Of a stretch of DNA of 64,000 nt, positions 31,450-34,928 are shown in pieces; the stretch's first letter is position 1; the number at the start of each line of letters is the position of its first letter. The DNA is from Oscillospiraceae bacterium (GTDB lineage: Bacteria > Bacillota > Clostridia > Oscillospirales > CAG-272): the NCBI GenBank assembly GCA_015064785.1, contig SVRM01000001.1, forward strand, positions 349-64,348, written 5' to 3'. Made by a program: the position numbers and the translations under genes. Under the pieces are notes generated by a model, which was not told where the DNA came from, ran no database searches, and saw only the letters and a program-made list of their open reading frames with translations.

Positions 31450-32715
31450 TTATGCCTCCGGATCCGTCATCGTACCGATGAAGAACGGCACACCACGCGC
31501 ACAGTCGATGAGCATGTAGAGAAACGGGCGGTCAAGATACACCTGCTTGGGTTCTTCAATCAATGCGGCGCATCCGTCGCTCATTTCAATGACCGTCGCC
31601 GCACCCGCTTTGGTTCCGCGCGCATCCACGCATAAAAACGTTTTGTGCAGAACACGGCTGATAAAGAGATTGCCGTCAGTCGAGTGTCCGAGTCGCGAGA
31701 AATCGGATACCGCGCTGTCAAATGCATCGGGCATTCCCATTGCACACAGAATTTCACTCATCTCCGCGTTGTATTCCGTTTCAAACTGCGGAATTGCGGT
31801 ATAAACTGTGGCGGTCATCGGGTTTTTCAGCATTTCATACAGCCTCTCACCGTCCAGCGATGCCGCATATTCTGACAGGGTAATACCTTCTTTGGGCAGA
31901 AGTGCGGCAAAAGCGTATCTGCCGCCGCGGTAGGTTTTGATAAAGCCTGTCGCATATGCATCCTCAAGATACCGGCTTTCCTCTCCGTACATCATATCGA
32001 CATCTCTGCTCTCACCTGATTCCGTGGTAAATATGCCTTCCCTGACCTGCGGCTTGCGGTAGATATCCTGCCATTCGGCATCAAAGGCAAGCGCATTGAC
32101 CAGATACATCACCGCGTCTGCCGGAATTTCATCCAGAATTTCGCGGATCATACCGTCGGTTTTGTCCTTTACCCAGCGATTGATCTCACGACAGGCTGCC
32201 GCATCCAAGGGGGCTTGGTAGATGTCGGCACCGTACAGGTCGGCGTTGGTCTGAAGAAATTCCGGGCTGACGGTAAAGCGGGCATCATCAGTAAACCAGA
32301 TCGCATTGGCAAGGTGCATTTTGCAGGCTTCCTCGTTGGACTGCGAGGTCAGATATCCGTGCATCCATTCATTGAGATGGGATATCGGCATCCCGAGTAC
32401 CTGCTCCATCTGTGCAAGGGTTTCTCCTGCCGCGCCGTTTGCGGTCATCGAAAGTGCAGATGCCACCGACAGCGGTGAGATCAGTGTGTTTCTGCCGTCT
32501 TCCATGCACGCACGGAGCAGACGCACTGCAAAGTCCGTCATCGCGGGGTCACCAAGTTCAGCAGCTGCGGTGCTGTCAGAGGATACCGGGTTTGCCGTGA
32601 TGCCGCGCATCAGATCATCCGAAACCGGTGCGCCGCAGGAGCAGAAGGTCAGCACGGTCAGTGCCGCCGCCAGAAAAACTGTAATCATCCGTTTCATAAA
32701 CTTCCTCACAATCAT
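31450..32715 (-). CDS. Serpin (serine protease inhibitor family), secreted lipoprotein
   Basis: 421 aa. Signal peptide plus lipobox (LTFCSCG). Serpin blocks ISPLSVASALSMTANGAAGETLAQMEQVLG, hinge GTKAGAATV and C-terminal DRPFLYMLID. Start at 32715 (TAATG overlap with the upstream stop) or ATG 32697. Confidence 0.9.
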   Translation of the reverse strand: MIVRKFMKRMITVFLAAALTVLTFCSCGAPVSDDLMRGITANPVSSDSTAAAELGDPAMTDFAVRLLRACMEDGRNTLISPLSVASALSMTANGAAGETLAQMEQVLGMPISHLNEWMHGYLTSQSNEEACKMHLANAIWFTDDARFTVSPEFLQTNADLYGADIYQAPLDAAACREINRWVKDKTDGMIREILDEIPADAVMYLVNALAFDAEWQDIYRKPQVREGIFTTESGESRDVDMMYGEESRYLEDAYATGFIKTYRGGRYAFAALLPKEGITLSEYAASLDGERLYEMLKNPMTATVYTAIPQFETEYNAEMSEILCAMGMPDAFDSAVSDFSRLGHSTDGNLFISRVLHKTFLCVDARGTKAGAATVIEMSDGCAALIEEPKQVYLDRPFLYMLIDCARGVPFFIGTMTDPEA

Positions 32716-33530
32716 TAATCATATAAAAATTCGTAATCGGGCAGAGCCTGCCATGCATCTGTCGCGGTCAGGAGATCGGTGATGTCCCGGCAGGCAGAGA
32801 GGAACGCCTGTCCTTTTTTGTTGGATGCTTCATAGATCAGTGCAATATTCTTGCAGGTGACTGTCCTGCTTTGACCGCCGGCGCGCACCGTCAGTACAAG
32901 CGTCATCGCCGGGCTGGTTGCCAGTGTCGGATCGGGATGATATTCGGCAGGATAACGGTTGATATCGAGTGTGCGGAGCATGTCGTATATGTTCTCTGTC
33001 TCCTCCGGGGACAGAACATATTCTGTCACATAGTCCTCCGGATGCGTCGCATCGCTTGTTTTGATCAGGACACCCGACTTGCTGTCGTAGGAGCTGATTC
33101 CCCAACACCCCCAGCGCAGAAAGAAGGAAAAATCCTCCGGCACGGTTTCGGGCAGATCCAGCTGCGTCGGCGGAATCCACCCAAGCTCCGCAAGCTGTGG
33201 CTGTACCTGCAGCGGAATGTCATCAAGCCCGCCGCGGGATAGACGGATAACGGCATATGCTCCGGTTTGTGCCGGATAGGTTGTGGCAATGCGGTCATGC
33301 AGGACGAGTATTTGATCCCCGTCCGCAATGTCGGAAAACAGCGCACCGTAGTGCAGTCTGTCCTCCATCACAATCGGTGTTGTGCCGTCAATGAGCAGAA
33401 ACTGCCCGTTTGCCGTCATGCACCGGCCGACGGTGATGCTGTATCCGTTTGCCGCCATCAAAACAGCGGCAAGTGCGCAAAGGACAGCAAGCGCGATGGC
33501 AGCGATCAGAAAGATCCAGCGCTTTTTCAA
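32715..33530 (-). CDS. N-terminally membrane-anchored protein of unknown function
   Basis: 271 aa. TTG start behind GGAGGG. One hydrophobic helix (WIFLIAAIALAVLCALAAVLMAA). I recognise no motif in the ectodomain. Confidence 0.7.
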   Translation of the reverse strand: MKKRWIFLIAAIALAVLCALAAVLMAANGYSITVGRCMTANGQFLLIDGTTPIVMEDRLHYGALFSDIADGDQILVLHDRIATTYPAQTGAYAVIRLSRGGLDDIPLQVQPQLAELGWIPPTQLDLPETVPEDFSFFLRWGCWGISSYDSKSGVLIKTSDATHPEDYVTEYVLSPEETENIYDMLRTLDINRYPAEYHPDPTLATSPAMTLVLTVRAGGQSRTVTCKNIALIYEASNKKGQAFLSACRDITDLLTATDAWQALPDYEFLYD

Positions 33531-33544
33531 AGTGTATCCCTCCT

Positions 33545-34183
33545 TTAATCCGAATCGAGAAGGCTTGCAATCGCCTTGATTTCCTCCTCTGTCAGCGTCA
33601 CGGACACACCGGTTTCCATATCAAGCAGGCAGTTGCCAGAAACATGGTAAACATGCGGATTGTCCGCCGCATCGAGGAAGGTGATGTCAAAGATGCCGTC
33701 CCCGACGCTGCCGTACCGGTCGTCCGTCAGATGGCCATAGTCTTCCGTGACCGGTTTGGTCTCCGCAGGCGTACCCTCACCGGTCGATTTGTCCACTGCC
33801 GCTTCATCCCGCGTGGTGCTGTCTGCGTCCCCGTCTTCCGTGAATGCGGTCTGCAGAAGTGCATACACCGCCGCAATCTGCTCGCTGTCCTGAATGACAG
33901 CCGTACCGGTATCCCTTCTCACGGACATGCTGACATACGGTGGAATTGCCTCCTGATTTTCGCATTCCGGCGCGGCATCCTCCAGAGCGGCACTGTCGGA
34001 GCCGACAACACGGCTGACACGCCACACCCCGCCGACCAGCAGAAGCAGACATGCGGCAATGGCACCCCAGCGCGTCCAATGTGTGCGCGGTGCCGATGTT
34101 TTCTGCATCCGCAGACCATTGACCGCTTCCAGCAGATCGTCGTCTATGTATTCCATTGCATCAAAAATCAGATCGGTTGTCAC
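33545..34183 (-). CDS. Single-pass membrane protein translationally coupled to the sigma factor (putative anti-sigma factor)
   Basis: 212 aa. GTG start in a GTGA overlap with the sigma stop. About 38 cytoplasmic residues, then TM helix WGAIAACLLLLVGGVW, then an acidic ectodomain. The N-terminal module is homologous to that of the ORF at 63087. Confidence 0.7.
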   Translation of the reverse strand: MTTDLIFDAMEYIDDDLLEAVNGLRMQKTSAPRTHWTRWGAIAACLLLLVGGVWRVSRVVGSDSAALEDAAPECENQEAIPPYVSMSVRRDTGTAVIQDSEQIAAVYALLQTAFTEDGDADSTTRDEAAVDKSTGEGTPAETKPVTEDYGHLTDDRYGSVGDGIFDITFLDAADNPHVYHVSGNCLLDMETGVSVTLTEEEIKAIASLLDSD

Positions 34184-34740
34184 AGGATATATCCCTCCTC
34201 CTCCAGATATGTGCGCAGATGCTGTCTTGTGCGGAACAGCATCGATTTTGCTTTTCCCTCACTCATGCCGCAGTAGGACGCGACATCACGCAGGGTATCC
34301 ATATAATAATACCGCCCGATGAACGCATTGCGCTCCTCCGGTTTCAGTGTCCGAAGGAACCTGTTCAGCAGCTCTCCGAGCACCTTGGCATCGAGTACGC
34401 TTTGCGGGTCTTCTCTGTCCGTCATGAGATCCTCCATTTCCGTCATCGAAAGTGCAAATTCACCTTTTCCGCGTTTTTGCGAGGTGCGGCGGCGCCAACG
34501 GTCGATGGATATTCGCCGGGTCAGCTTGCCGAGATACGTCGACAGCACCGACGGTCTCTGCGGCGGGATCGAATTCCAGGCGGCAAGGTAGGTATCGTTG
34601 ACGCTTTCCTCGCTGTCACCGGGATCATCCAGAATGTTATGCGCGATCTTCGTCAGATACGCCGCGTATTTTTCCTGCGTTGCGGTGATCGCCGATTCGT
34701 CACGTTCCCAGTACAATGCCACGATTTGTTCGTCTTGCAT
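34180..34740 (-). CDS. Sigma-70 family (ECF-like) RNA polymerase sigma factor, paralogue A
   Basis: 186 aa. Region 2 block SEESVNDTYLAAW, RRISIDRWRRR, and region 4 block KAKSMLFRTRQHLRTYL. Confidence 0.9.
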   Translation of the reverse strand: MQDEQIVALYWERDESAITATQEKYAAYLTKIAHNILDDPGDSEESVNDTYLAAWNSIPPQRPSVLSTYLGKLTRRISIDRWRRRTSQKRGKGEFALSMTEMEDLMTDREDPQSVLDAKVLGELLNRFLRTLKPEERNAFIGRYYYMDTLRDVASYCGMSEGKAKSMLFRTRQHLRTYLEEEGYIL

Positions 34741-34899
34741 ATGATGGTCCCCTTTCTCTTGATGTACTTCTGTCTTATATCTCGCAAAGAAATGGTTTCG
34801 GTTTCACTTTCCGGCAAAAATTTTTCAAAAAAGTATAATTTTCCGCAATGTTCCGACGTTGCTTGAATGATTTCACCGATGGAGAATGATCTTTCCGAT

Positions 34900-34928
34900 A
34901 TTATACAGCAAACCCATACACTTGTCAA
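34900..34928 (-). promoter_or_regulatory. Consensus sigma-A promoter upstream of sigma paralogue A
   Basis: On the minus strand: TTGACA (34928..34923), 17 bp, TATAAT (34905..34900). Leaves a leader of about 155 nt. Confidence 0.55.

Follow-up and report, generated by a model that had tools for sequence, protein, structure and literature searches.

Two sigma factor loci and their serpins

We examined 64,000 nt of a genome assembly from an Oscillospiraceae bacterium (GCA_015064785.1, contig SVRM01000001.1, positions 349 to 64,348; this whole stretch is called the window), in which two loci each combine the gene of an extracytoplasmic function (ECF) sigma factor with a putative membrane-bound anti-sigma factor and a serpin. 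Locus A lies on the minus strand and encodes sigma factor A (34180..34740, 186 aa), a putative anti-sigma factor of 212 aa (protein A, 33545..34183), a membrane-anchored protein of 271 aa (32715..33530) and serpin A (31450..32715; an open reading frame (ORF) of 421 aa, 415 aa according to the gene caller). Locus B, on the plus strand, encodes sigma factor B (62497..63090, 197 aa from the first ATG) and a putative anti-sigma factor that is continuous with a serpin (fusion B, 63087..64000). At both loci the anti-sigma gene overlaps the sigma gene by 4 bp, and the two are translationally coupled. The fusion gene ends at the window edge; at full length it encodes 479 aa, as read from a metagenome contig with an identical sigma factor (L007:3498-4937; L numbers designate related loci).

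The original prediction for this DNA held that one short N-terminal module, a helix followed by a transmembrane (TM) segment, stands free at locus A and is fused to a serpin at locus B, and that it is a minimal sigma-binding element. The peptides it quoted were reproduced exactly on re-translation (MTTDLIFDAMEYIDDDLLEAVNGLRMQKTSAPRTHWTRWGAIAACLLLLVGGVW from 34183..34004 on the minus strand, MKREQILDMIGEAPDAYVADAQKHKKPHIPRKWKWLGAIAAMLAVVLLVNNI from 63087 on the plus strand), but the locus A module is not free-standing: its ORF continues to 33545, and the 212-aa product includes an extracytoplasmic part of about 155 aa. The module was also placed next to serpin A; the two do share an operon, but the 271-aa gene lies between them. 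The serpin assignments were borne out at both loci (PF00079, E 1.7e-80 for serpin A and 2.9e-26 for residues 106-296 of fusion B). The sigma factors, taken by eye for paralogues with about half their positions in common, are 50% identical (E 3e-65). The serpins of the two loci are only about 27% identical.

Both sigma factors are of the ECF type, with sigma-2 and sigma-4 domains only. Both scored above the cut-offs for PF04542 (Sigma70_r2) and TIGR02937, and sigma A also for PF08281 (Sigma70_r4_2); sigma A matched the Pfam model Sigma70_ECF as well. In protein A, the module (residues 1-27, 34183..34103) is followed by a basic linker, a TM helix (about residues 38-59, 34072..34007) and an ectodomain (about residues 60-212). 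Fusion B has the same order: module (residues 1-27, 63087..63167), TM helix (about residues 33-52, 63183..63242) and then IPLIVSAKTVSAASDSRKMERP, a juxtamembrane segment that is conserved. The TM helix is separated by a linker of about 50 aa from the serpin domain, which begins at about residue 100. Serpin A is a separate protein with an N-terminal signal sequence that includes a lipobox-like motif (...LTFCSCG).

A common promoter motif, TGaAACC-N15-CGAGATATA, was present 20-73 bp upstream of the sigma start, always with a spacer of 15 nt. By a strict regular expression, 24 of 70 sequences had it 5’ of the sigma gene, namely both operons of the window and 22 related loci; looser variants were visible at further loci. 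The entire 64-kb window contained only two ECF-type matches, at 34806 on the minus strand and 62450 on the plus strand. The first is the locus A promoter, TGAAACC-N15-CGAGATA (34778..34806), 34 bp upstream of the sigma A start codon; the second, located by motif scan, is that of locus B, TGCAATG-N15-CGAGTAG (62450..62478), whose TGCAATG variant recurs at the orthologous loci L057 and L088. Neither the 271-aa gene nor serpin A has an ECF-type motif in front of it, and locus A is therefore most simply read as a single transcript carrying sigma factor, anti-sigma factor, 271-aa gene and serpin. Between A-type and B-type promoters it is mainly the -35 element that changes (TGAAACC versus TGCAATG or TGCAACC), and cross-talk between the two is conceivable. 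Autoregulation of both operons by their ECF sigma factors, which these motifs suggest, forms part of the explanation developed below.

Locus A has a second candidate promoter, of the housekeeping type (TTGACA-17-TATAAT, 34900..34928, minus strand), which matches the consensus at 12 of 12 positions and lies about 95 bp upstream of the ECF-type element. This pairing suggests dual control of the locus by one basal and one autoregulated promoter. At locus B, the first ATG of sigma B (62497) is only 19 nt past the -10 element, which ends at 62478, and a GGAGG ribosome-binding sequence falls within the first codons. The true start is probably GTG 62512 or ATG 62518, giving a protein of about 190-192 aa.

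Protein A matched no Pfam or NCBIfam family, and phmmer with its ectodomain against all related loci returned its own orthologues only. An AlphaFold2 (AF2) model of protein A (mean predicted local distance difference test (pLDDT) 53.5) had no PDB match at E<=0.001 by Foldseek. Residues 117-162 form an acidic insert that AF2 predicts to be disordered; one could speculate that this insert serves as a protease-labile bait. The 271-aa protein matched no Pfam family above threshold. Its partial homologues lie directly after the anti-sigma gene at L014, which is serpin-linked, and at L062 and L067; some cassettes may include it as a third component. It is unrelated to the 289-aa lipoprotein encoded at L101.

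A family of short N-terminal modules beside ECF sigma factors

To describe the gene context of the module, we read the gene 3’ of each sigma factor at 80 loci encoding relatives of the window sigma factors, drawn from GTDB genomes. Where names were informative, the sources were gut or rumen Clostridia, uncultured or cultured, such as Oscillospiraceae and Lachnospiraceae. The one exception, L035, is a sigma/anti-sigma pair of the Clostridia type on a contig binned as Methanocorpusculum sp. (JAFQBW010000010.1), probably through an error in the binning of a metagenome-assembled genome (MAG). A single-pass membrane protein of the module architecture was encoded directly downstream of the sigma gene in 76 of the 80 loci, with a 4-bp overlap in 58 of 80. 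The TM helix began at a median of residue 33, and the cytoplasmic part spanned 23-46 residues (median 33 aa). Approached from the module side, all three proteins picked from the profile search had an ECF sigma gene directly upstream, again with a 4-bp overlap. In these samples, then, the module did not commonly occur apart from a sigma gene; had it done so, this would have spoken against the original prediction. The sub-types of the module track the clades of the sigma factors, as expected for cognate partners. One locus (L092:1928-4210) carries two sigma/module pairs in direct tandem, a local paralogous expansion.

The conserved core comprises about 27 residues with the consensus M-[KN]-x-[ED]-x-[LI]-x-[DE]-A-[LIM]-[GN]-x-[IL]-x-[DE]-[DE]-h-[ILV]-E-E-[AVT]-x-x-L-R. 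It is followed by a linker rich in lysine and arginine and by a TM helix that opens with a near-invariant AA, often AAC. The AA pair (A43 and A44 of protein A; residues 43-45 correspond to window positions of about 34049-34057) is at least 90% conserved across the family, more than most of the presumed sigma-binding helices, and could be a determinant of intramembrane cleavage or a degron.

When 1.84 billion cluster representatives (clusters at 50% identity) were searched exhaustively with HMMER, 2,937 proteins matched at E<=1e-3, of which 269 reached E<=1e-10; the top 150 matches all started at residue 1. The search was seeded with the short contig-end fragments that were the only yield of a word-indexed search with the module profile, and these fragments were unsuited to tabulating ectodomains; word-indexed searches with full proteins returned near-identical sequences only. 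A hidden Markov model (HMM) built from 21 metagenome fragments was not used for counting, being biased to the B-type sub-family (it detected 44 of the 80 downstream proteins). The profile search and tabulation of ectodomains that had been proposed as a check yielded a large and highly varied set: Serpin, Big_14, FG-GAP, DUF4179, DUF5050, Peptidase_M15/VanY, Transpeptidase, LRR_5, SH3_3 and, weakly, LprI, along with many ectodomains that belong to no family. Besides the serpins, several of these are cell-wall or enzyme-inhibitor domains (Peptidase_M15/VanY, a penicillin-binding protein transpeptidase and the weakly matched lysozyme inhibitor LprI), a hint that sensing by means of enzymes or inhibitors may be more general.

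Existing resources do not describe the module. No Pfam or NCBIfam model matched the N-terminus at E<=1, the only signal being a sub-threshold NF052375 over the TM region. When a profile of 66 modules was compared with every PDB chain, nothing rose above noise (best E 0.57, to unrelated helical proteins). In RefSeq, GenBank and UniProt the members, including the serpin fusion, are named “hypothetical protein”. By the profile searches, the module is a real and large N-terminal family without a database model.

Whether the two window modules belong together depended on the method of comparison. The pairwise alignment that had been proposed gave no significant similarity: BLASTP of the two 80-aa N-termini reported no alignment at E<=100. 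HMMs of the pre-TM segment built from a single clade recognised that clade’s own module (E 1e-7 to 1e-13; with close orthologues left out of the models, 1.1e-7 for protein A and 9.9e-9 for fusion B) and missed that of the other clade (E 0.3 to 4.6). A mixed-family HMM of 28 pre-TM residues, from which the close orthologues of both window proteins had been left out, was searched against the six-frame translation of the window and matched the two modules only (E 1.7e-7 and 2.5e-6; the next match had E 0.66). We dropped it as proof that A and B are related, since the clade-specific HMMs did not detect each other’s module. Comparison of the two clade profiles by hhalign, restricted to the 28 pre-TM residues, aligned them in full register with a probability of 97.3 (E 1.7e-11, score 40.8). 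One hundred column-shuffled controls scored 7.9 +/- 2.3 (maximum 18.2) and a reversed profile 8.5, which places the observed score about 14 standard deviations above the shuffled controls. Because the profile-profile match is so far above these controls, we assign the two modules to two sub-families of one N-terminal family; because the TM helix was excluded, their similarity is not a matter of generic TM-helix composition, the objection that the original prediction had itself raised. At the level of motifs, I-x-D-x-[MI] and GAIAA-x-L were confirmed in both modules and the absence of HxxxCxxC likewise; R-x-W-x-W is exact at locus B, but locus A reads R-T-H-W-T-R-W.

The anatomy of the module points to an anti-sigma factor. 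AF2 predicts a helix from residue 3/4 to 10/11, a break at G/N-x-h-D, a second helix from 15 to 26/27, an unstructured basic linker and a TM helix (35-59 or 38-53). The predicted helices agree between the 212-aa protein A and a 55-aa module modelled with a 23-sequence alignment. The segment is acidic and amphipathic, and basic residues stand directly before the TM helix; by the positive-inside rule, the N-terminus should lie in the cytoplasm. Class I anti-sigma domains are four-helix cytoplasmic domains of 101 +/- 33 aa, and about two thirds of ECF sigma factors lack a recognisable class I anti-sigma factor nearby (PMC7406223). With 23-46 cytoplasmic residues, the module proteins are too short for a class I domain, which is thereby ruled out; they also showed no zf-HC2 or RskA-type match, and the original prediction had rightly described the cytoplasmic part as much shorter than the classical domain. 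They do have the architecture of class II, CnrY-like factors: fewer than 50 aa with two predicted helices (at low pLDDT), then one TM helix. The window operons contain no other anti-sigma candidate. Taken together, position and architecture make it very probable that these proteins are single-pass anti-sigma factors and that they bind sigma through the module.

Its closest known architectural counterpart is the class II domain of CnrY, from the CnrYXH system of Cupriavidus metallidurans. CnrY is likewise a single-pass protein encoded beside an ECF sigma factor, with a short two-helix cytoplasmic N-terminus, no zinc motif and a length far below that of class I; its helix 1 contacts sigma-4 and its helix 2 contacts sigma-2 (PMC7406223). 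In contrast to CnrY, with which the PDB-chain profile search detected no sequence relation, the family described here has a conserved core of only about 25 residues and belongs to Clostridia.

Serpins at the sigma factor loci

A serpin gene or domain was found 3’ of the sigma gene and on the same strand in 20 of the 80 loci, as a separate gene in 15 and fused to the anti-sigma factor in 5. The separate serpins started -4 to +154 bp after the anti-sigma gene in 12 of 15 loci, and those with a clear start codon carry a lipoprotein signal (lipobox). In a neighbour-joining tree of the sigma factors, loci with separate and with fused serpins were scattered over several clades. Fusions involve the A-type serpin at L127 and L157 and the B-type serpin in the window-B clade and at L041, L053 and L121; since both serpin types are fused, the fusion arose at least twice. 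At L127 and L157 the module is joined roughly at the site of the lipoprotein signal peptide. The occurrence of the same components separately and fused is the textbook gene-fusion (Rosetta-stone) signal and, as far as gene order can tell, supports a functional sigma-serpin link.

Individual loci illustrate the range of arrangements. At L121 (334-3914), one operon encodes a sigma factor, an anti-sigma::serpin fusion (572 aa, with a D/N-rich linker of about 150 aa) and a separate A-type serpin (417 aa). At L101 (3357-7901), an A-type cassette (sigma factor, 194-aa anti-sigma factor, serpin lipoprotein and the 289-aa lipoprotein) is followed in tandem by an orthologue of the B-type cassette. Both cassette types also occur together in the window and in the MAG RGIG4573 (L012 and L057, on one contig). 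At L089 (3447-7073), the sigma gene precedes genes for a 91-aa module protein, a 336-aa serpin and two trypsin-like/HtrA-like proteins (Trypsin, PDZ); the short module protein and the serpin are probably a fusion split by a frameshift, the contig being a long-read one with many fragmented genes. The presence of serine protease genes beside them deserves mention.

Both serpin types look inhibitory by their hinges. GTKAGAAT of serpin A and GVAAAAY of serpin B align with the hinge of alpha-1-antitrypsin, LDRPF is present in both, and small residues surround the counted P1 position in each type. Siropins, serpins of [Eubacterium] siraeum, another member of the Oscillospiraceae, resemble them in coming from gut Clostridia of the same broad group and in having small residues around the predicted P1, and they inhibit elastase-type host proteases (PMC5127057). 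The same paper is silent on sigma factors and on the context of operons, and it mentions no signal peptide, lipoprotein or TM anchor.

The association was also approached from the serpin side. A metagenome scan with a serpin alignment collected 80 loci whose serpins are 43-60% identical to serpin A, and six of these had a sigma factor of the family upstream. Judged from gene neighbourhoods on both sides, the sigma-serpin link is real and strongly enriched relative to the rarity of serpin genes, though for the serpins it is a minority arrangement and not an obligatory one. With that caveat, the prediction of a functional link in place of accidental adjacency is upheld by the 20 of 80 loci, the independent fusions and the operons at L121 and L101.

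A proposed path from protease attack to sigma factor release

We propose that both window loci are autoregulated ECF sigma/anti-sigma operons of one Clostridia-specific family. The anti-sigma factor would span the membrane once, its N-terminus lying inside the cell. Its cytoplasmic part would comprise only a basic linker and two short helices, acidic and amphipathic (about residues 3-11 and 15-27), and its variable ectodomain would act as the sensor. The sigma factor would probably be released by regulated proteolysis, with an extracytoplasmic cut followed by one within the membrane, close to the AA(C) that opens the TM helix. Conservation of AA(C) at the cytoplasmic end of that helix is consistent with such a cut laying bare a degron rich in alanine, of the kind found in RseA and RsiW. 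As a general principle, site-2 cleavage exposes a degron for ClpXP (PMC10202637). In a sizeable subset of the family, the operon would serve in defence of the cell surface against proteases. At locus A, the serpin would be a co-transcribed, lipid-anchored output and the ectodomain of the 212-aa protein the sensor; at locus B, the serpin would itself be the anti-sigma ectodomain, and sigma B would be freed when a serine protease attacks the reactive loop of that serpin or the juxtamembrane linker. We consider this explanation, taken as a whole and resting on sequence comparisons, moderately probable.

A more specific version treats the fused serpin as a suicide-substrate receptor. Attack on the loop by a serine protease of host or microbial origin would lead to a conformational change or a covalent complex, then to a site-1 cut in the juxtamembrane region, degradation of the module and release of sigma B. 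Sigma B, and possibly sigma A because its promoter is near-identical, would then drive expression of the lipoprotein serpin. We offer this version tentatively, as a possibility attended by considerable doubt. The fusions of the window-B type (L057, L058, L088 and L101) share a juxtamembrane stretch, IPL[IA][IV]SAK[AT]VSxASxSRKxERP, which is a speculative candidate for the regulated cleavage site.

Beside the failed pairwise and cross-clade searches, several points weigh against the proposal. Serpins are missing at 60 of the 80 sigma loci, and about 74 of the 80 loci from the serpin scan lack a family sigma factor upstream. The anti-sigma ectodomains of the unfused serpin loci are not conserved, and hence show no sign of a dedicated serpin-binding domain. 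The models of the module are of low confidence (pLDDT 54 for protein A and 64 for the 55-aa module), as expected of a peptide that would fold on its partner. To our knowledge, 25-35 cytoplasmic residues are fewer than in any characterised anti-sigma domain.

The main rival explanation, which we judge rather unlikely, gives the serpin no part in sensing and treats it as mere cargo or output: the module and TM helix would be an anchor replacing the lipoprotein signal peptide, and the sigma factor would be freed by some other envelope signal. It would account for the final location of the serpins, since the separate ones are lipoproteins and the fused ones TM-anchored, with the joint at L127 and L157 lying about where the signal peptide would be. 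The extreme diversity of the ectodomains (Big_14, FG-GAP, DUF4179, Peptidase_M15, Transpeptidase) suggests that domains are easily swapped, and most related serpins lack a sigma factor of this family. What argues for a sensory role is that fusion occurred at least twice and with two types of serpin, and that the fusions of the window-B type conserve their juxtamembrane segment. The retention at L121 of a separate serpin beside the fused one points mildly, not decisively, the same way. Moreover, in every characterised single-pass ECF anti-sigma factor known to us the ectodomain is the input domain.

It is very unlikely that the N-terminal segment instead serves membrane proteins of the sigma regulon as a targeting signal or a conserved tail in the cytoplasm, with the sigma factor controlled in some other way. 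Such a role would suit so short a segment, which the databases call hypothetical and which resembles no known anti-sigma domain in Pfam, NCBIfam or the PDB profile search. It fits poorly with the position of the gene, which immediately follows that of an ECF sigma factor and in most cases overlaps it by 4 bp (76 of 80 loci, and three of three from the module side), with an acidic amphipathic character unlike the basic n-region of signal peptides, with sub-types that track the sigma clades, and with the absence of any other anti-sigma candidate from the operons. That the N-terminal resemblance and the serpin adjacency both arose by chance is scarcely credible: BLASTP found no pairwise similarity and the shared GAIAA lies inside the TM helix, but this explanation is already contradicted by the TM-free profile match, by serpins at 20 of 80 sigma loci despite the rarity of serpin genes, and by the independent fusions.

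The proposed reading, in which an anti-sigma factor anchored in the membrane senses through its ectodomain, has a close parallel in the SigV/RsiV systems of Bacillus subtilis and Clostridioides difficile. RsiV is also an ECF anti-sigma factor of Firmicutes; its ectodomain binds host lysozyme directly, which leads to site-1 and site-2 proteolysis and to resistance (PMC4183432, PMC5014341, PMC9044953). The ectodomain here is a serpin and not an RsiV fold, and the sequence and profile searches tied the module to no known anti-sigma domain. By analogy, the anti-sigma::serpin fusion would be the protease counterpart of the RsiV lysozyme receptor, and its serpin could act as receptor for the same proteases that it inhibits. 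We know of no serpin-regulator fusion in Bifidobacterium, another gut commensal with a comparable response. There, surface or secreted serpin is raised upon exposure to proteases through a two-component system of histidine kinase and response regulator, not through an ECF sigma/anti-sigma pair (PMC8201313, citing Alvarez-Martin et al. 2012). We found no paper connecting ECF sigma/anti-sigma factors with serpins, and the ECF reclassification paper does not mention serpins. The ECF sigma/anti-sigma pair as such is a known device; the minimal module and the serpin as ectodomain or output are undescribed.

If the receptor version is true, it would provide the first serpin to act as a transmembrane signal receptor, together with a new and smallest class of ECF anti-sigma domain. 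ECF sigma/anti-sigma pairs are a major bacterial signalling system, and the family would supply a partner for many Clostridia ECF sigma factors that now stand beside “hypothetical” genes. An anti-sigma domain of about 25-35 residues could serve as a compact orthogonal regulatory part, and the combination of promoter, sigma factor and anti-sigma::serpin fusion constitutes a directly testable sensor. Serpins of commensals inhibit host elastase-type proteases and have been discussed as modulators of inflammatory bowel disease (PMC5127057, PMC8201313); an operon that senses protease attack at the cell surface and responds with a serpin would account for the regulation of such inhibitors in Clostridia.

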